Positions 3,514-39,866 of a stretch of DNA of 39,866 nt are shown here, in pieces (the stretch's first letter is position 1; the number at the start of each line of letters is the position of its first letter). The stretch comes from an uncultured Candidatus Saccharibacteria bacterium (lineage in GTDB: Bacteria > Patescibacteriota > Minisyncoccia > Phycocordibacterales > Phycocordibacteraceae): NCBI GenBank assembly GCA_964457265.1, contig CAYWEI010000003.1, positions 3,732 to 43,597 of the forward strand, in the 5' to 3' direction. Below the pieces are notes generated by a model. The model made no database searches and had not been told where the DNA came from. It saw only the letters and a program-made list of their open reading frames with translations. The position numbers and the translations under genes were made by a program.

Positions 3514-4410
3514 CTAGAGCTCGTCTATCGCATCGTCCGCGAGGTCTTCTGCCTCTTCCGCGTAGTCTATCGCGTCGTCATAATCTCCGTCATCGTAAGC
3601 ATCCTCAGCATCCTCGAGCGCATCCTCGGCATCGTTAAGGAGGTCTTCAGCATCATCGACGTCGTAGCCATCGTCGTCAGCATCGTTTATCTCGTCACGA
3701 GCGTTGTCGATGGCGTCCTCGGCATCCGCTATCGCGTCCTCGGCGTCATCTCTATCGTCCCCGTTGTTATTACTGCTTCTGTGGCCATCGACCTCGTCGA
3801 TAGCGTCTTCCGCAGTATCCTGCGCGTCTTCCGCGTAATCTATGGCATCGTCATAATCGCGATCGAGCAGCTCATATACGGCATCCCACATCTGGTCTTC
3901 GGCCTCGTTTATGAGGTTGGCCGCGTTGCCCGTCGAACGGCCATCGCCCCGCGCATCGTCATATTCGTCCAGAGCATCCTCGTAAGCGTCCCGGGCATCA
4001 GAGAGCGCGTCGAGCGCATTCTCGAAATCCGAATCATTGTTCCGGGATGAAGAAGACGAAGAGGACGAGCTGCTTCCTGAAGAAGCCCGCGCAGGAACGA
4101 ATGCTCCGTTAACGCTCAGTCCGTATGCCGCTTGCCACCGCATGACCGCCAGCTGAGTGCGCTGGCCGAAATAATTGGATTCATACCCTGGAGCGCCGGC
4201 TCCGGCGTTCGTGATGATGAACCCGGTCGAGTTCAGGTATCGCTGCAAGCAGCGGACATCTTCTCCTGCAGCTCCCATGGAAAGAGTCCGAGCTATGGTG
4301 CACGGTACGGTCTGAGCGTGAGCGAACGAAGGCGCGAGGCTTGCGAGAGAGAGAATCGCAGCCAATCCGATAAGGAAGCCGCTCGTTCTGTAAGTAAGGG
4401 TACGGATCAT
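3514..4410 (-). CDS. secreted protein: signal peptide, PG_binding_1-like domain, poly-Ser linker, highly acidic Asp/Ala/Glu helical repeat domain
   Basis: N-terminal hydrophobic leader ending AHAQ. PG-binding pattern GEDVRCLQRYLNSTGF...YFGQRTQLAVMRWQAAYGL. SSSSSSSSSS linker. C-terminal repeats of DAxDxxDDAxD ending EDALEDAEDAYDDGDYDDAIDYAEEAEDLADDAIDEL. Confidence 0.8.
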   Translation of the reverse strand: MIRTLTYRTSGFLIGLAAILSLASLAPSFAHAQTVPCTIARTLSMGAAGEDVRCLQRYLNSTGFIITNAGAGAPGYESNYFGQRTQLAVMRWQAAYGLSVNGAFVPARASSGSSSSSSSSSSRNNDSDFENALDALSDARDAYEDALDEYDDARGDGRSTGNAANLINEAEDQMWDAVYELLDRDYDDAIDYAEDAQDTAEDAIDEVDGHRSSNNNGDDRDDAEDAIADAEDAIDNARDEINDADDDGYDVDDAEDLLNDAEDALEDAEDAYDDGDYDDAIDYAEEAEDLADDAIDEL

Positions 4411-4524: not shown

Positions 4525-5475
4525 TTAGAGCTCGTCTATCGCGTCATCCGCGAGGTCTTGGGCATCCTCGGCGTAATCGATAGCATCCTCATAATCGCCG
4601 TCATCATACGCGTCTTCGGCGTCTTCGAGCGCATCCTCCGCCTCATCGAGAATATCTTCTGCCTTGCTGATCCTCGAAGAAGAGCTCTTCGAGCTGTCTA
4701 TCTCATCCTGGGCATCATCGATAGCATCCTTCGCGTCGCTGATAGCATCCTTGGCGTCAGACTTATCGCCGCCGCTTCCGGAGTCCATCTCATCCTGAGC
4801 GTCATCGATGGAATCGAGCGCGTCTTCCGCGGCTTCGATCGCGTCCTGATAGTCCCCCTCCACGAAGGAATAGGCTGCCTTGAGGACACTCTTCTCTGCC
4901 TTGTCGAGATATTTCTTCATATCTCCCACCTCCTCTCCGTCATCAGTCGCATCTTCGTAATCGTTGAAAGCGTCCTCATACTCATCACGCGCATCGAGCA
5001 CCTTCTCTCGGGCATCCTCCATCTCCCGGTTCACTGCAGGCACCGGGACGGGAACAGGCGTCGGCGCAGGAGAAGGTACCGGAGCCGGAGTCGGGACAGG
5101 TGCCGGCGTCTGAGTGGAGCCGGTGAGCACCATCAGCTGGTACTTCGCGCGCGATAGCGGACCGAACGTGCCGGTCGCAGGACTGATGCCGTTAGCTGCC
5201 TGCCACTTCATGAGTGCAGCACGGGTCTTTTCCTTGAACTGCGGAGTCTCGAATCCCTTCGAGCCTACCCCCGTGTCAGAGACCGTGAAGCCTGTCTCGT
5301 TCAGATACCTCTGAAGGCAGCGGACCTGCTCATTCTCAGTGCCGAGCGTGAGATCGGTCGTGAACGTGCAGCTGGCTGCGCGCGCGGTCATCGGCAGTAC
5401 GGCTGCGCCTGCGAGTATAAGGCTTGCCATGGCGACGAGCGCGATGGCAGTTCGTTCCTGTAGTGAAATGTTCAT
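4525..5475 (-). CDS. paralog of 3514-4410: signal peptide, PG_binding_1-like domain, Pro/Ala/Val linker, acidic repeat domain
   Basis: Same architecture as its neighbour: NEQVRCLQRYLNETGF...KTRAALMKWQAANGI, PAPVPTPAPVPSPAPTPVPVPVP linker, and a C-terminus EDALEDAEDAYDDGDYEDAIDYAEDAQDLADDAIDEL that is nearly identical. Confidence 0.8.
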   Translation of the reverse strand: MNISLQERTAIALVAMASLILAGAAVLPMTARAASCTFTTDLTLGTENEQVRCLQRYLNETGFTVSDTGVGSKGFETPQFKEKTRAALMKWQAANGISPATGTFGPLSRAKYQLMVLTGSTQTPAPVPTPAPVPSPAPTPVPVPVPAVNREMEDAREKVLDARDEYEDAFNDYEDATDDGEEVGDMKKYLDKAEKSVLKAAYSFVEGDYQDAIEAAEDALDSIDDAQDEMDSGSGGDKSDAKDAISDAKDAIDDAQDEIDSSKSSSSRISKAEDILDEAEDALEDAEDAYDDGDYEDAIDYAEDAQDLADDAIDEL

Positions 5476-7230: not shown

Positions 7231-7264
7231 TCACCCCGTCTCCCTATTTCGCTGCGCTCAATGT

Positions 7265-7298
7265 AGTCGGGGTGCGGAGAATTGAACTCCGTCTACTT
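7265..7298 (-). pseudogene. orphan copy of the 3' 30+ nt of tRNA-Pro (T-arm plus acceptor 3' strand)
   Basis: 34-nt perfect direct repeat of 7344-7377 (agtcggggtgcggagaattgaactccgtctactt). The upstream sequence cannot form an anticodon or D arm. Confidence 0.7.
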
Positions 7299-7345
7299 CC
7301 CTAACGGGCCACGGATGCGTCCCACGCATCCGGTCAAAAATAAAG

Positions 7346-7416
7346 TCGGGGTGCGGAGAATTGAACTCCGTCTACTTGTTCCCAAAACAAGCGTACTACC
7401 GGTATACGACACCCCG
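7346..7416 (-). tRNA. tRNA-Pro (anticodon TGG), CCA not encoded
   Basis: Reverse complement is CGGGGTG...CTTGT TTTGGGA ACAAG TAGA CGGAG TTCAATT CTCCG CACCCCG A. G37 is typical of tRNA-Pro. Confidence 0.87.
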
Positions 7417-7418
7417 AG

Positions 7419-7587
7419 TGGAGAAGAAACAGATACGTCCTCGTATATGATTTCTTCGGAACGATGGGGTGCTTCAGTGCAAGCAACTGATACACCCCGA
7501 GCGGAGGAAACGTAACGCAAGTCTTCTTGTGATTACGTTTTCCGTAGCGATGGGATGCGCCGGTGCAAGCAACCGGCACACCCCGAG
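7419..7587. repeat. two tandem 83/86-nt two-hairpin units, each starting (minus strand) with the first 10 nt of tRNA-Pro
   Basis: acaccccgag occurs at 7409, 7492 and 7578. The conserved loop gtgcaagcaac is at 7477-7487 and 7563-7573. The stems differ between units but stay complementary. Confidence 0.5.
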
Positions 7588-7629: not shown

Positions 7630-8100
7630 TCAAAGGATTTGCGGGAGGTATGCCACCTGCACGGCCCCATCCCCTGCCCGGAGCCATACTAGGGCCGCGT
7701 CTACTTGTGCCGCGCCATTCCATCTCTTCTCGGCCATATACCACTCGCTGGTCCGGGTCACTTTCCGTATCTTGGCAGCATGCAGATTCGCCGAGGGGTC
7801 GTATCGATCCCGCAGACCCCCATCCTGAGGGAAATCGCGGCAGAGGATGGTCTTTACCTCTACGAAGTGGAGCGTCCCGCCTTTTCGGGTGATAACGTCT
7901 ATCTCTCCGGTCTTCCTCGCGACGTTCATGGCGACTATGCGGTGACCCCGATCCTTCAGATATCGCGCGACCAGCGCTTCCCCATACGCGCCGATTTCTT
8001 TGCGAGACATGCCCTTTATATCCATCTCGTACATCGTACGGATATCAGATAAGGCTTTTATAAAATCCTTATAAAATATAGATATAGTAGCGACATTCAT
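7630..8100 (-). CDS. yraN: YraN-family (UPF0102) endonuclease-like protein
   Basis: GAYGEALVARYLKDRGHRIVAMNVARKTGEIDVITRKGGTLHFVEVKT matches the YraN core. The true start may be an internal Met (e.g. MSRKEIG at 8010). Confidence 0.78.
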   Translation of the reverse strand: MNVATISIFYKDFIKALSDIRTMYEMDIKGMSRKEIGAYGEALVARYLKDRGHRIVAMNVARKTGEIDVITRKGGTLHFVEVKTILCRDFPQDGGLRDRYDPSANLHAAKIRKVTRTSEWYMAEKRWNGAAQVDAALVWLRAGDGAVQVAYLPQIL

Positions 8101-8302
8101 CTCATGCTCATAAAAGTCAGCTGTCTCTTATCCCCACTGTTAACAGACTTATCCCCTGTTATTCACAGGTGTCCGTAACGCGAAAGGCCCGCTGCAAGGC
8201 TTTATTCGTGACGATAGAGCCACGGATGGTCGTTTCGAACGTGTTCCGGCCTCAGCTTCTCCACAAGAAGTGTGACGGCTCTTATCATTCGCACCTTCAT
8301 AC

Positions 8303-8324
8303 GACAAAACGCCCTTACGGGCGT
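8303..8324 (-). terminator. terminator after tRNA-Gly(GCC)
   Basis: Minus strand reads acgccc-gtaa-gggcgt followed by TTTTG. Confidence 0.5.
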
Positions 8325-12443: not shown

Positions 12444-13199
12444 ATGGATACCTTCTTCTTTCTCACTGTCTTCGTGCCGATCGCGTTCGTGCTGCTCGTC
12501 GCCGTCATCAAGCAGATCAATCAGTACGAGCGAGGCGTCAGATTCACCATGGGACGCTTTTCCGGAATCATGGATCCGGGATGGCGGATCATCATCCCCG
12601 TCTTCCAGACATATCAGAAGGTAGACATGCGCACCAAGGCGGTCGACGTGCCGGACCAGAACGCCATAACGCGCGATAACGTATCGGTTCGCGTGAATGC
12701 GGTCATCTATTACAAGGTTTCAGATGCCCAGAAAGCCATTATCGAGGTCGAAGACTTCCGTTCGGCCATTTCCCAGTATGCTCAGACGACGATGCGCAAT
12801 ATCGTCGGCGAAGTGACCCTCGACGAGCTCCTCTCGAGCCGGGACAAGATAGCGGACCGCATCCGGGAAATCGTGGACAAGGAGACAGACGCATGGGGAC
12901 TCAAGGTGCAGAATGTGGAATTGAAAGACGTAAGCCTTCCGCCGGACATGGAACGCACGATAGGGAAGCAGGCGGAAGCTGAGCGGGAGAAGCGGGCAGT
13001 GATCATCACCTCTGAAGGGGAAGTGGCAGCTGCGCAGAACATGGCGACTGCCGCGAAGATGCTCTCTGCCGTTCCGGGAGCGCTTCACCTGCGTACGCTG
13101 CAGTCCATCAACGACATATCCTCGGATAAATCGAATACGGTGGTATTCGCCATGCCGCTTGAGATACTGAAGGCCCTGGAAGGCTTCTCGAAGCCCTGA
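12444..13199 (+). CDS. SPFH/band-7 (stomatin/prohibitin-like) membrane protein
   Basis: N-terminal TM segment, then QYERGVRFTMGRF...ITRDNVSVRVNAVIYYKV... and a coiled EAEREKRA region. Confidence 0.9.
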   Translation: MDTFFFLTVFVPIAFVLLVAVIKQINQYERGVRFTMGRFSGIMDPGWRIIIPVFQTYQKVDMRTKAVDVPDQNAITRDNVSVRVNAVIYYKVSDAQKAIIEVEDFRSAISQYAQTTMRNIVGEVTLDELLSSRDKIADRIREIVDKETDAWGLKVQNVELKDVSLPPDMERTIGKQAEAEREKRAVIITSEGEVAAAQNMATAAKMLSAVPGALHLRTLQSINDISSDKSNTVVFAMPLEILKALEGFSKP

Positions 13200-18081: not shown

Positions 18082-19272
18082 CTAGCTACCGAAAGGGTTC
18101 TTCGCGCCGCGCACCTCGAAGTGGAGGTGATAGCCCGTAGCTTCGCCGGTCTTTCCGACAGAACCGATCTGCTCGCCCTTCGCGACCGATTGCCCGACGG
18201 AGACCATGTCCGTCGTCATGTGGGCGTAGAGCGTCTGCACGCCGTTGCCATGATCGATCACTACGTAGTTGCCGTACCCTCCGTTCCAGCCGCCGACGCG
18301 GGAAACGATGACGGTGCCTCCGGCCGCAGCGAAGATAGGGCTTCCCATAGGCGCCGCGATGTCGACACTGTTCCATCCGTGGATGCCTTGAGAGAGACGT
18401 CCTGCCGGTACGGGATTGGTGAACCCGCTCGATGCCGTGCTGCTCGTGTCGCCCGTAGGGAGGATGGAGCCCATGCCGCCGCCCATCTTGATCTTCGGCT
18501 TCGAGACGGTCGCGGCCTTCCCCTTAGCCGAGGCCGATGCGACCTTCGCCTTCGCGACGGCCTTCGCAGGAGCCGCAGCGACTTCGCCGCCCGGAATGAT
18601 GATATTGCTTCCCGCTGTCAGGCCCGCATCCGTATCGAGACCGTTGTAGGAGGCGATCTCGTCCGCATCAGAACCGTAATCCTTAGCCAAGGAAGCGAGC
18701 GTCTCGCCCTTCCCTATAGTGTGACGGAGACCCGATACCGGAAGGATAACGAGCGTAGAGCCAGGAGTGATGGCGCTCTTCGTCGTCAGATTATTCGCCC
18801 AGAGAATCGTGTTCACGGAAACGTCGAACATGTCTGCGATATCCGAGAGGGAGTCGCCTTCTCGTACGGTATAGCTCGAGATGCGGCCGCCGGTCACGCT
18901 GCGATCGACATCGACGATGGTGCCGTCAGGTCCCGCATAGGCGATAAGAGCGGACCCGCCAGCTAGCGAAACGCCGCCCCGGCCCTTGGCCGGGTTAGGG
19001 TCTGGGTTAATGGCAGCCTCGAGGAGGTCGATGCTGCTGTCGTGAAGGAGAGGGGAGGCGGCTCCGGAAGCGTTAGTTACGGAAAATGGCCAGAACGCGC
19101 CTGCGGTGTGCGGCATCAGGATGATTCCTATCCCCAAAAGGAGGCTTGCGGCGATTAAAGCGCCAGGAATCCAGTATGCATGCCGACTCGCATCTAGCAC
19201 TCGAGAGTCTGCAGGGTTCTTAGGGTCAAAGATAGTGGAAACAGGGGACTTCAGCCGTTCTTCAGAATACAA
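18082..19272 (-). CDS. membrane-anchored LysM (x2) + M23 metallopeptidase (cell-wall hydrolase)
   Basis: Two LysM motifs (YTVREGDSLSDIADMFDVSVNTILWANNL and HTIGKGETLASLAKDYGSDADEIASYNGL). M23 motifs VDIAAP, YGNYVVIDHGNG, TGYHLHFEV. The start is TTG, and an in-frame TAA lies 3 codons upstream. Confidence 0.9.
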   Translation of the reverse strand: MYSEERLKSPVSTIFDPKNPADSRVLDASRHAYWIPGALIAASLLLGIGIILMPHTAGAFWPFSVTNASGAASPLLHDSSIDLLEAAINPDPNPAKGRGGVSLAGGSALIAYAGPDGTIVDVDRSVTGGRISSYTVREGDSLSDIADMFDVSVNTILWANNLTTKSAITPGSTLVILPVSGLRHTIGKGETLASLAKDYGSDADEIASYNGLDTDAGLTAGSNIIIPGGEVAAAPAKAVAKAKVASASAKGKAATVSKPKIKMGGGMGSILPTGDTSSTASSGFTNPVPAGRLSQGIHGWNSVDIAAPMGSPIFAAAGGTVIVSRVGGWNGGYGNYVVIDHGNGVQTLYAHMTTDMVSVGQSVAKGEQIGSVGKTGEATGYHLHFEVRGAKNPFGS

Positions 19273-19323
19273 AATGGCTTAGGTAAGCCATCCTTGCGTG
19301 TCAGATAATCGTTCGATGAAGGT

Positions 19324-19351
19324 AGTATAAACGCTGTGAGACAAGGGTCAA
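19324..19351 (-). promoter_or_regulatory. candidate promoter of the LysM-M23 gene (TTGACC - 16 nt - TATACT on the minus strand)
   Basis: ggtcaa at 19346-19351 and agtata at 19324-19329 on the plus strand. Confidence 0.35.
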
Positions 19352-19437
19352 CCTTGCCAGAATGAAGAAAAGTGGAGAGCGGACAGAGAGACAATTTGTC
19401 AAAAGCATGTCATTAAATGGATATTTCCGGCGCTTCA

Positions 19438-19546
19438 CCGAGGTATTTTTCACCCGCTCGATGGGTCCCGCGTTCAGTTTCTTAGCACCTCCGCAAGTCG
19501 GCTGAAACTGAACGGATCGTCCGCGCTTCTGAAAAAAATACCTCGG
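19438..19546. ncRNA. structured RNA element, copy 1 (family unassigned; strand ambiguous, plus slightly favoured)
   Basis: Outer stem ccgaggtattttt/aaaaatacctcgg. Inner stem cgttcagtttc/gaaactgaacg. Apical loop acctccgcaagtcggct shared with 39628-39740, where both stems differ but remain paired. Confidence 0.5.
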
Positions 19547-19607
19547 GTTCGCTTCCGTTCGAATCTTTGACCCGCTGTTAGCGAGGGATGCATGCTCCGA
19601 GGTATAG

Positions 19608-22244
19608 TTGTGCGATATGCAGTACCTTGATGGCCTTAACGATGCGCAGCGGGAAGCAGTCCTTACCACGAACGGGCCCGTCTCCGTACTGGCGGGCGCA
19701 GGGTCGGGGAAGACCCGCGTGCTCACTACCCGTATCTACCACCTTATCCGTGAAGGCGTGCCGGCTGACCGCATCCTCGCGGTGACCTTCACTAACAAGG
19801 CCGCTCGGGAGATGAAAGAACGCCTCCGGGAACGGCTGGGAGACAGTCCGCTGCCTTTCGTCGCCACGTTCCACGGGCTCGGGAGGGAGATCCTGGAGCG
19901 CTACGGCACGCGTATCGGCATCCCTCGCTATTTCACGATCTTCGATCGCGACGATTCCAAGAGCGCCATCAAGCAGGTCCTCAAAGAGATGGATATCGAC
20001 TCGAAGGAAATATCGCCAGGGTTCGTGCTATCACGCATATCGAAAGAGAAGGGGGAGGGGAATACTCCGGAGGCATTCCGCGAGAAGTACGGACGCCAGA
20101 GCTTCAACTCGAGAGTAGTGGCCGAGGTATGGCCGCGTTATGAGGCTATCGTACGCAAGGAAAAGGCACTCGACTTCGATGATCTCATATGCCTGCCCGT
20201 AAGGCTCCTGCGCGACCACGAGGACGTGCGAGCGCTCGCCGAGCAGCTATTCACGCATGTGCACGTCGACGAATACCAGGATACGAACGGCCTGCAAGGA
20301 ACCCTGGCCGGCTATCTTTCTTCCGTACACAAGAACCTTTTCGTGGTAGGTGACATCGATCAGTGCCTTATAGCAGGTACTGACGTGCATATGTCTGACG
20401 GCACGAAGAAGCCCATCGAACTGGTTAAGGAAGGTGATTCAATCTTGTCGAATTATGGGAGCGGTGACATGCGCGCGGCCCAAGTTACGAAAGCAATGGA
20501 AAGAACATTCACGGGCGACCTCATCCGTATCGTGACTACGTCTGGCCGCAGTATCACGAGTACGCCAGAGCATGTGCATTTCGCCGGATATCCGCACCAT
20601 CAGGAACAAGCGAGTCAAGACAATATTGTTATCTCCCTTTGTGGAGATCGTCGAGGAAAGACACCCATGCATCGCATATCGATGATAGGAAGCGACTCGG
20701 TAGGGAAGGGAATCCTCAGAGAGGCCGGATTCTCTGTACGTGACGCGAAGATAGGATCGAAGAGCTGGAGATTCGAGACATCAAGGGCAGACTATGGAGA
20801 AGTCCGCGCACTGGCCCAGAAGCTTCAGGGATTATTCCCCGAGGCTCAGATTGTCGAGACCGCTCGCTTAGGAGGAGCGAAAGCGAATCCGAAGGATGGG
20901 AATTCCTTGTCATTCCTTCCTGCAGGCTCAGTCCTACCGGGCATGGCGATGTTCGATCAGGAAGGAGGATGGGAAATAGTCGATACCGTCGAACGCGTTC
21001 CAGCGAGGGATGTGCCGGTATATGACCTCAATATCGAGAACACGCATAATTTCATCGCGAACGGACTCTCGACTCACAACTGCATCTATACCTGGAGAGG
21101 GGCCACGATAGAGAATCTCCTCGGCTTCGATGAACGATATCCGAATGCAAAAAATATCGTGCTTGCCCACAACTACCGATCGACCAAGACCATCGTCGCG
21201 GCAGGCAACCAGATCATCGAGAAGAACCGGAACCGGAAGGAGAAGCATGCGGTCACCGACAACCCTGACGGGGAACCTATACGGCTCTACCAGGCTGCCA
21301 ATGCTGAGCAAGAAGCGACGTGGATCGCCCGCCAGATCCGAGCGGCCATGCGCGAAGGAGTCGCGCCTGAAGAGATAGCTATCCTATTCCGCACCAACTT
21401 CCAATCCCGCGCGCTTGAAGAAGCGGTGCTTGCAGCCGGTATCCCGTACAAGGTGCTCGGAACGAAATTCCTCGACCGGAAGGAAGTGAAAGACGTGCTC
21501 TCGTGGGTCAGGCTCGCGCTTGAGCCCTCGCGAGAGGCGGATCGCATGCGAGCGGTCCAGTCGCCTCCGCGCGGCATCGGCAAGGTGACGCTCGGCAAGA
21601 TGGCGGAAGGGAAGCGCGATACCCTCAAGCCCGCAGAACGGACGAAGGTGGCTGCATTCGAGAATCTCGTGAACGAGCTCTCGGAACTCGCGAAAATCGC
21701 GATCCCTTCCTCATTCGTGAAGATAGTGATCGAGAAATCAGGCATGGCCGCGAGCCTGCTCAAGGAAGGCGAGGAAGGGCAGGAGCGGCTGGAGAACGTG
21801 AAGGAGCTCGCGACGCTCGCGAGCCGGTTCGACGGTCTCCCTGGAGAAGAGGGGCTGGCAGCATTCCTTGCCGATGCGTCGCTCGCAGGAGACCAGGATG
21901 AGATAGATCGCGATCCCACTAAGACCGGAGTCACGCTCATGACGGTACATGCCGCGAAAGGACTCGAATTCGATACCGTCTTCGTGACCGGTCTCGAGGA
22001 AGGCCTGTTCCCGCACGGCGGCCATGACGACGAGAAGCGGGACGAGGAAGAGGAGCGCCGGCTTTTCTATGTCGCCGTAACCCGCGCCAAGCGCAGGCTC
22101 CACCTCACGTTCGCCCAGGTTCGCCGCATCTATGGCACCGATTTCTTCTCCGAGCCCTCGTCTTTCATCCGGGATATCGATGACAGCCTCGTGTCGTATT
22201 CAGAAGGGAACGACCCGTACGCCGAACACGTGATACATATATAG
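19608..22244 (+). CDS. uvrD: UvrD/PcrA-type DNA helicase, interrupted by an intein
   Basis: LNDAQREAV, Walker A AGAGSGKT, TFTNKAAREM, VDEYQDTN, then VVGDIDQ|intein|CIYTWRGAT (motif III), and C-terminal VHAAKGLEF / LFYVAVTRAK. TTG at 19608 sits 5 nt after GAGG. The alternative start is ATG at 19617. Confidence 0.93.
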   Translation: MCDMQYLDGLNDAQREAVLTTNGPVSVLAGAGSGKTRVLTTRIYHLIREGVPADRILAVTFTNKAAREMKERLRERLGDSPLPFVATFHGLGREILERYGTRIGIPRYFTIFDRDDSKSAIKQVLKEMDIDSKEISPGFVLSRISKEKGEGNTPEAFREKYGRQSFNSRVVAEVWPRYEAIVRKEKALDFDDLICLPVRLLRDHEDVRALAEQLFTHVHVDEYQDTNGLQGTLAGYLSSVHKNLFVVGDIDQCLIAGTDVHMSDGTKKPIELVKEGDSILSNYGSGDMRAAQVTKAMERTFTGDLIRIVTTSGRSITSTPEHVHFAGYPHHQEQASQDNIVISLCGDRRGKTPMHRISMIGSDSVGKGILREAGFSVRDAKIGSKSWRFETSRADYGEVRALAQKLQGLFPEAQIVETARLGGAKANPKDGNSLSFLPAGSVLPGMAMFDQEGGWEIVDTVERVPARDVPVYDLNIENTHNFIANGLSTHNCIYTWRGATIENLLGFDERYPNAKNIVLAHNYRSTKTIVAAGNQIIEKNRNRKEKHAVTDNPDGEPIRLYQAANAEQEATWIARQIRAAMREGVAPEEIAILFRTNFQSRALEEAVLAAGIPYKVLGTKFLDRKEVKDVLSWVRLALEPSREADRMRAVQSPPRGIGKVTLGKMAEGKRDTLKPAERTKVAAFENLVNELSELAKIAIPSSFVKIVIEKSGMAASLLKEGEEGQERLENVKELATLASRFDGLPGEEGLAAFLADASLAGDQDEIDRDPTKTGVTLMTVHAAKGLEFDTVFVTGLEEGLFPHGGHDDEKRDEEEERRLFYVAVTRAKRRLHLTFAQVRRIYGTDFFSEPSSFIRDIDDSLVSYSEGNDPYAEHVIHI
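20364..21080 (+). mobile_element. intein (239 aa) inserted in helicase motif III of uvrD/pcrA
   Basis: Begins CLIAGTDVHMSDG (block A) and has TSTPEHVHF (block B TxxH). Ends VYDLNIENTHNFIANGLSTHN, followed by +1 Cys (CIYTWRGA). Removing it restores VGDIDQ-C/S-IYTWRGA. Confidence 0.88.
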
Positions 22245-39537: not shown

Positions 39538-39568
39538 CAGAAAGCGCCCCCCCAGGGCGCGCTTTCTG
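39538..39568 (+). terminator. rho-independent terminator of dnaN
   Basis: cagaaagcgc-loop-gcgctttctg followed by tttatt. Confidence 0.75.
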
Positions 39569-39627
39569 TTTATTCAATCTCTAAAGTTTAGGAACGGCTG
39601 CAGTACGCAGTCGCGTAGAGTCACTTC

Positions 39628-39740
39628 GGAATGTATCTTTTTGCATCCGCTCCACGGGTCCCCGTATAGTTTCCTAACGCCTCCCGCAAGTCGGCTGAAA
39701 CCATACGTCCCGTGTTCGCTCCTGAAAAAGTATACATTCC
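39628..39740. ncRNA. structured RNA element, copy 2 (same family as 19438-19546)
   Basis: Outer stem ggaatgtatcttttt/aaaaagtatacattcc. Inner stem cgtatagtttc/gaaaccatacg. Apical loop gcctcccgcaagtcggct. Confidence 0.5.
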
Positions 39741-39866
39741 TACGTTTCTCTAGCGACCGCGGCGGACCCTGTATGTTACTAGTATTCCCTGGGTGCGACG
39801 CGGTTTACTGGCCTCCGATATCGCTCCCATCGATCCCTATCCCGGGCGTCGAAGTCGCCGTAGTCG

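Follow-up and report, generated by a model that had tools for sequence, protein, structure and literature searches.

A two-copy palindromic repeat in a Paceibacterota genome that may be a mobile foldback element

Classical MITEs have conserved termini, and the ERIC and Correia elements have been reported to alter the stability or processing of mRNA. As a class, MITEs are small and intergenic, with terminal inverted repeats, direct repeats that erode over time, and transcripts with stable stem-loops (PMC10969869). We examined a stretch of 39,866 nucleotides (the window) from an uncultured Paceibacterota bacterium that holds two copies of a palindromic element, and at 109 and 113 nt both copies are within the size range of MITEs (< ~500 bp, no transposase gene). 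The reading that we favor, with moderate confidence, is that the element is a non-autonomous palindromic foldback repeat of the MITE / ERIC / Rickettsia-palindromic-element kind, within one lineage of the Paceibacterota (Parcubacteria, CPR). A sequence-only reading of the window had described two homologous copies that share one hairpin architecture, and this was confirmed by end-to-end alignment, by RNAalifold and by fold z-scores; the stem and loop strings that it quoted were all recovered in place. The features of the two copies and their surroundings are collected in Table 1.

Table 1. Coordinates of the palindromic element, its stems, and the neighboring sequence features within the window.
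Feature	Coordinates	Strand	Length or pairing	Remarks
Palindromic element, copy 1	19438..19546		109 nt	between LysM-M23 gene (minus) and uvrD (plus)
Palindromic element, copy 2	39628..39740		113 nt	between stop codons of convergent dnaN and PBP genes
Copy 1 outer stem, left arm CCGAGGTATTTTT	19438..19450			pairs with 19534-19546
Copy 1 outer stem, right arm AAAAATACCTCGG	19534..19546		13/13 Watson-Crick pairs	pairs with left arm
Copy 2 outer stem, left arm GGAATGTATCTTTTT	39628..39642			pairs with 39725-39740
Copy 2 outer stem, right arm AAAAAGTATACATTCC	39725..39740		15 pairs, one-base bulge	pairs with left arm
Copy 1 inner stem	19471-19481 / 19504-19514		11/11 pairs	encloses 22-nt apical loop 19482-19503
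Copy 2 inner stem	39663-39673 / 39697-39707		10/11 pairs	encloses 23-nt apical loop 39674-39696
Extra outer helix, copy 2 only, GTCGCGTAGAG with CTCTAGCGAC	39610..39620 with 39748-39757		10 bp	from DNA fold of 39561-39805
Terminator-like hairpin after dnaN	39544..39560	bidirectional		outside element; sole structure that relatives share in this spacer
9-mer CCGAGGTAT, direct repeat of copy 1 left arm	19597..19605	+		overlaps uvrD GGTATAGT box
CGCTTC hexamer, copy 1	19431..19436	+		one base left of hairpin; also at 19524-19529 and 19550-19555
One-mismatch CGCTTC variants, copy 2	CACTTC 39622-39627; CGCTCC 39717-39722; CGTTTC 39743-39748			at matching places of copy 2

The two copies lie 20 kb apart in the same orientation and their contexts are unrelated, copy 1 being between divergent genes and copy 2 between convergent genes. 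The whole hairpin could be aligned end to end between the copies at ~74% identity: the 108 aligned columns contain 28 substitutions, besides which there are indels. A covariance model made from both copies (R1) scored copy 1 at 131.6 bits and copy 2 at 139.8 bits. An 18-mer, CCGCAAGTCGGCTGAAAC, is common to both copies and was found at no other site in the window (0.03 expected); an exact run of 18 bases would not be very surprising between copies of ~74% identity. The apical loop had been reported as near-identical and conserved; its string is present in both copies, but the inner stem plus loop were not clearly better conserved than the rest (~82% identity, versus ~69% for the remainder, as counted on alignment A4). 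The sequence of copy 1 was reproduced base for base in an independent Logan assembly of SRR12762291 (L033), and thus it is not an assembly artefact. Besides SRR12762291, run SRR12712864 also contains the species. Neither copy includes a conserved ORF led by a start codon; open reading frames traverse the element in both orientations.

Homology between the copies starts within ~6 nt of the left foot of the hairpin and fades within ~10–20 nt of the right foot. The flanks outside the hairpin were no more alike than shuffled sequences (410/500 shuffles scored as well on the right, and 412/500 on the left), which shows that the duplicated unit is the palindrome itself, ~110–125 bp. The sole exception to unrelated flanks is a set of CGCTTC-like hexamers at three matching positions per copy, a pattern noticed post hoc; in copy 1 the second of these is just 5' of the right arm and the third is 3 nt right of the hairpin. 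They may represent a 6-bp target-site duplication, or they may be part of the element. The flanking repeats are not directly at the hairpin (in copy 1, gaps of 1 and 3 nt separate them from it), and the pair flanking copy 2, CACTTC/CGTTTC, matches at 4/6 positions. The 9-mer CCGAGGTAT, occurring at 19438 and again at 19597, was considered as another target-site duplication and rejected: the region 19576-19616 is homologous to the uvrD promoter region of the relatives, and GGTAT is a common promoter (-10) word in the window, making this repeat weakly significant.

Folding energies were -42.2 kcal/mol (plus strand) and -43.6 (minus strand) for copy 1, and -36.3 (plus) and -48.0 (minus) for copy 2; all four single-strand folds were far better than those of shuffles (z -3.8 to -7.9, with 0/200 shuffles as good). 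The RNAalifold consensus was one 34-pair hairpin, identical on both strands, in which 7 pairs were changed on both sides between the copies and none was broken, in agreement with the compensatory stem changes proposed from the sequence. When an equal number of substitutions was placed at random, at least 7 double-changed pairs were obtained in 14/200,000 trials (~7e-5), although this test is partly circular because the consensus structure was itself predicted from both copies. Four of the seven compensated pairs fall within the outermost 5 bp of the arms, where the ends are copy-specific yet complementary; the inner part of the arms was kept between the copies as GTAT(C)TTTTT / AAAAA(G)(T)ATAC. 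The inner stem of copy 2 contains two compensated pairs relative to copy 1, and a 7x7 internal loop lies between the main hairpin and the extra outer helix seen with copy 2. The internal 5' and 3' segments of the element are not inverted copies of one another and are joined by just 2+2+5 pairs. A local 5' hairpin and 3' mini-hairpins (3–4 bp) had been drawn within these segments; their strings can pair as quoted, but they were absent from the minimum-energy and consensus folds, where these segments pair across the hairpin.

The strand evidence is mixed, as had been observed previously. The small 5' hairpins have G.U pairs on the plus strand, which become A.C on the minus strand; the odd position of the copy 2 inner stem behaves the other way round (A.C on plus, G.U on minus) and so pairs better on minus. 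The wobble pairs are therefore split by strand, plus in the 5' part and minus in the inner stem. With wobble pairs on both strands, a DNA palindrome fits better than an RNA made from one strand.

Rfam (4227 families) was searched with cmscan, at the gathering score for the whole window and at E<=10 for both copies on both strands. The whole window gave four tRNAs and nothing else, and the sole match for the two copies on either strand was a meaningless snoRNA; neither ydaO nor 6S RNA (RF00013) was matched at E<=10. Searches with nhmmer and with model R1 of the window and of loci L020–L024 and L033–L037 (~180 kb of related loci) returned only the two known copies. Exact-pattern scans demand exact words and consequently miss diverged copies. 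With such scans, the 18-mer core gave 0 matches in viral contigs and 18 matches in GTDB genome contigs, the latter to the 18-mer alone, in unrelated phyla, and at about the number expected by chance; the pattern AGTTTC-N7-13-core gave 0 matches in JGI metagenomes; and the 5'-half pattern CCGCTCNANGGGTCCC-N3-8-AGTTTC gave 8 matches, all in unrelated high-GC sequence. There was no blastn match (word 11) to the element among plasmids and phages, and a terminator scan found no intrinsic terminator at either copy, its one site being 39544-39560, outside the element. Neither a transposase gene nor a RAYT gene is encoded within the 40-kb window, and literature searches on CPR bacteria found no report of such palindromic mobile repeats.

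Repeats of other kinds were seen elsewhere in the window. A 39-nt repeat (7260-7298 / 7339-7377; 95% identity, 79 nt apart) overlaps the 3' part of a tRNA gene (7346-7416, minus), and a second repeat pair of 50 nt (7452-7501 / 7538-7587) adjoins it; these repeats of the tRNA cluster could be an att-site-like remnant or could represent duplication of a tRNA fragment. Two tandem paralogous genes (3514-4410 and 4525-5475, minus; PG_binding_1 + DUF4398) are made up of 21-nt-periodic internal repeats.

We examined if relatives carry the element at the orthologous sites. DnaN and UvrD of the window were 89% and 83% identical, respectively, to those of Parcubacteria bacterium C7867-004, and the remaining close matches to these proteins were Patescibacteria MAGs or metagenome contigs. 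On the uvrD side, neither L022 (UvrD 94% identical) nor L023 (C7867-004, 83%) has the element in its spacer. Both keep a conserved block up to TTGTCAAAAGCATGT and a TTAG...GTTATAGT...ATG block before uvrD, and the ~150 nt holding copy 1 is missing between these blocks. The dnaN-PBP spacer is 286 nt in the window versus 27–96 nt in L020, L034, L035 and L037, and in L036 (DnaN 82% identical) it holds an unrelated 83-codon ORF (8061-8312); this spacer looks like a hot spot for insertions. Copy 2 is situated beyond the dnaN terminator and before the stop codon (39805-39807) of the class-A PBP gene, which is convergent to dnaN. The element was accordingly absent from two orthologous spacers on the uvrD side and from five on the dnaN side, all in distant relatives. 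The fourfold-degenerate sites of uvrD were ~40% identical between the window and L022, the closest available relative, i.e., neutral sites are saturated. Because of this saturation, absence in the relatives indicates a lineage-specific gain or loss and not a recent insertion; by the same measure, copies that still share ~74% identity must either have arisen long after that split or be constrained, and the two copies may themselves be under constraint. Insertion of the element into a pre-existing 10-bp palindrome (CCGAG/CTCGG, GGAAT/ATTCC) was considered as the origin of its copy-specific outer 5 bp; there is none at the empty sites of the relatives, but their spacers are too diverged for this to count against it. 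The uvrD/pcrA gene (19617-22244) was seen to contain an intein (Pfam Intein_splicing, residues ~264-491 of the ORF translated from 19608); neither the closest relative (P0125, 636 aa, 94% identical) nor C7867-004 has it, but it occurs in many more distant Patescibacteria homologues.

The gene starts of the window were examined for signals of transcription and translation. SD-like tetramers were found at 4/29 gene starts (4.7 expected at random), whereas a TAnnnT box was present at -20..-4 of 13/29 starts (2.2 expected; never reached in 1000 random samples), with 8 of the 13 boxes being TATAAT-like. The GGTATAAT-like -10 boxes lie ~6–11 nt before the ATG (e.g., at 12444, 14311, 29007, 32507, 36852 for dnaA, 19617 for uvrD, and 11428 on the minus strand). 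Since SD words were no commoner than random and the -10 boxes are so close to the ATG, the pattern suggests that leaderless mRNAs dominate in the source genome. The GGTATAGT box of uvrD (19601-19608) ends 8 nt before the ATG (19617), there is no conserved SD, and the box is conserved as GTTATAGT in relatives without the element. Transcription of uvrD therefore probably starts downstream of copy 1, and the anti-SD-like CCUCC of the loop would have no target.

On the minus strand, copy 1 is upstream of the M23 promoter-like sequence TTGACC-16-TATACT (19351-19324), not between promoter and gene; this site had been pointed out in the sequence-only reading, and we find that it exists and is conserved in the relatives. 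It is included within an unannotated non-coding block (19200-19416, minus) which precedes the LysM-M23 gene and is ~90% conserved in relatives with saturated synonymous sites, and which also holds a perfectly conserved hairpin ATGGCTTAnnTAAGCCAT, then TTTTGTATT, and a possible 9-codon ORF (MAYLSHFVF). This block gave no Rfam match at E<=10; it is a better candidate for the regulatory leader of a cell-wall gene than is the palindromic element. The spacer of the divergent M23 and uvrD genes also has a palindrome, GACAATTTGTC (19390-19400), that overlaps with a -35-like hexamer, TTGTCA; the conserved forms in the relatives are GACAAATTGTC and GACAAAATGTC. The palindrome has the appearance of an operator, and an SOS-type site comes to mind given its place upstream of uvrD.

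These results bear on several other explanations of the element. That it is a cis-regulatory leader, either a ydaO-like c-di-AMP riboswitch for cell-wall genes (minus strand) or an anti-SD leader of uvrD (plus strand), as had been suggested, we find scarcely credible. Genes for cell-wall proteins (the LysM-M23 peptidase and the PBP) do adjoin both copies on the minus strand, and the loop has CACCUCC / CGCCUCC; however, neither ydaO nor any other relevant family was matched by either copy on either strand among the 4227 Rfam families at E<=10, on the minus strand copy 1 precedes the conserved M23 promoter-like site, and the relatives have kept these genes but not the element. Copy 2 follows the 3' ends of both neighboring genes, and was rejected as a 5' leader from its position between convergent stop codons. 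The uvrD leader is countered by the conserved -10-like box 8 nt before the ATG and the lack of an SD target, uvrD and most genes of the window being without an SD and apparently leaderless. The CACCUCC of the loop is identical to the usual anti-SD word at the 3' end of 16S rRNA, and GCAAGUCG, directly after it, is a word conserved near the 16S rRNA 5' end; we presume that both are coincidence. A DNA-level site for protein binding or cruciform formation, operator-like or a replication/recombination element near dnaA-dnaN, which was duplicated once by chance recombination, seems very unlikely. It would agree with a palindrome that is symmetric as DNA and favors neither strand, with the location of copy 2 in the dnaA-dnaN region, and with the CGCTTC-like hexamers at fixed positions in both copies. 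Conversely, the relatives have the same gene order without the element, so that it serves no conserved chromosomal function; the asymmetric internal regions of 20 nt and the loop of 22–23 nt exceed typical operator palindromes, and no DnaA-box-like repeats were seen in the sequence of either copy.

It is somewhat unlikely that the element is a lineage-specific structured ncRNA, with selection acting on the RNA fold, either as two paralogous plus-strand sRNA genes whose transcripts begin at the hairpin foot, or as an RNA module used repeatedly to stabilise, process or insulate neighboring transcripts. The compensated stem changes, the very stable folds, the shared orientation of the copies, and the G.U pairs of the 5' part that function on the plus strand only are all in keeping with such an RNA, as are the -10-like hexamers on the plus strand before each copy (GATATT at 19420-19425, 12 nt before copy 1; TAGAGT at 39616-39621, 6 nt before copy 2), whose spacing of 6–12 nt resembles the -10-to-ATG spacing of leaderless genes here. 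But TAnnnT hexamers are common, so that these -10-like boxes are weak evidence; the copies share no promoter or terminator, their flanks are unrelated, and there is no terminator-like site on the plus strand after either. The A.C of the copy 2 inner stem favors the minus strand and makes the strand evidence conflicting, no homologue was present in the relatives examined or in Rfam, and covariation in two sequences cannot tell selection on RNA from maintenance of a DNA palindrome. We think it quite improbable that the element represents an undescribed structured RNA family of one Paceibacterota lineage, transcribed on the plus strand from the hairpin foot, with stems preserved because selection acts on the RNA and with the CCUCC-GCAAGUCGG loop as its functional face; an RNA of this family would be, for example, a protein-sponging or RNA-polymerase-binding sRNA in a cell whose translated mRNAs are mostly leaderless.

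The mobile palindromic repeat is the explanation that we prefer. It is favored by the presence of homologous copies, each of which is one long hairpin on both strands with compensated changes in its arms, and by their differing contexts, their absence from the orthologous spacers of relatives, and the lack of an Rfam family. Against it are that two copies are known, with no third found in the window, in the ~180 kb of related loci, or by the exact-pattern scans; that the terminal 5 bp of the arms are not the same in the two copies; that no clean target-site duplication abuts the hairpin; that the window encodes no transposase and no parent IS is known; and that the relatives are distant. The statement in the sequence-only reading that the element is not a MITE was nevertheless too strong, since the inner arms are conserved, homology ends at the foot of the hairpin, and the orthologous spacers of the relatives examined are without the element.

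If it is a mobile repeat, the element would move, or would have moved in the past, in the form of DNA and by means of an enzyme whose gene lies elsewhere in the genome, and this enzyme may recognise the folded hairpin or cruciform along with the conserved inner arms GTAT(C)T5 / A5(G)(T)ATAC. Pairing may have been kept because mobilisation needs the hairpin, or it could result from quasi-palindrome template switching, whereby the change in one arm is copied to the other. Template-switch mutagenesis of quasi-palindromes is a route for mirrored changes in arms. A copy within a transcribed stretch would form a stable RNA hairpin, and an altered stability or processing of the mRNA would then be a side effect and not the raison d'être of the element.

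If this reading is true, it would place a hairpin-shaped mobile repeat within the CPR (Patescibacteria), whose genomes are very small and streamlined, and some enzyme in these cells would be able to mobilise folded DNA. The covariation of two copies in a DNA palindrome is no evidence for a riboswitch, as the compensation is explained equally by preservation of the palindrome as DNA. The signs of leaderless expression and the conserved region upstream of LysM-M23 are possibly more useful than the element itself, which is of modest interest unless its transcript is a discrete RNA.

We compared the element with several known systems. Its likeness to ydaO-yuaA (RF00379) includes the cell-wall hydrolase and synthase genes nearby and a rough two-fold symmetry; in contrast to ydaO-yuaA, the element has no covariance-model match, its copy 2 is upstream of no gene, and it is absent from relatives which keep the same genes. 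6S RNA (RF00013), a hairpin of ~150–200 nt with a central bubble, was rejected, the element being ~110 nt and resembling it solely as a hairpin with an asymmetric internal region. Three further systems were provisionally set aside: integron attC sites, as the element has neither R''/R' GTTRRRY boxes nor a cassette context; IS200/IS605 ends or PATE, as it has no left and right hairpins that resemble each other; and CRISPR repeats, which the minus strand resembles (GTTTCAG...AAGAAAC), as there is no array. REP/REPIN sequences (RAYT / TnpA-REP) are likewise extragenic palindromes, are recognised as a hairpin rather than as an exact sequence, and are often between convergent genes; REPs differ in being 20–40 nt with a conserved GTAG head, and a REPIN in consisting of two inverted REPs. 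A REP/REPIN assignment was rejected, as the internal segments of the element are not inverted copies and the window has no RAYT gene. ERIC/IRU of enterobacteria and Correia/CREE of Neisseria are, like the element, ~100–150 bp, non-coding and intergenic, with the whole element being one long hairpin, and they share with it presence or absence at orthologous sites and transcripts with stable stem-loops (class features, PMC10969869). The element differs from them in its host, a CPR bacterium, in its copy-specific outermost 5 bp, in having no clear abutting target-site duplication and two known copies, and in the lack of sequence similarity in plasmid and phage records or in Rfam. The Rickettsia palindromic elements are often in frame inside protein genes, whereas both copies here are intergenic, and no kinship in sequence is expected; in common with the element they are palindromic repeats of ~100–150 bp within a reduced genome, with reading frames open through the element in both orientations, and with strongly diverged copies that keep the hairpin.
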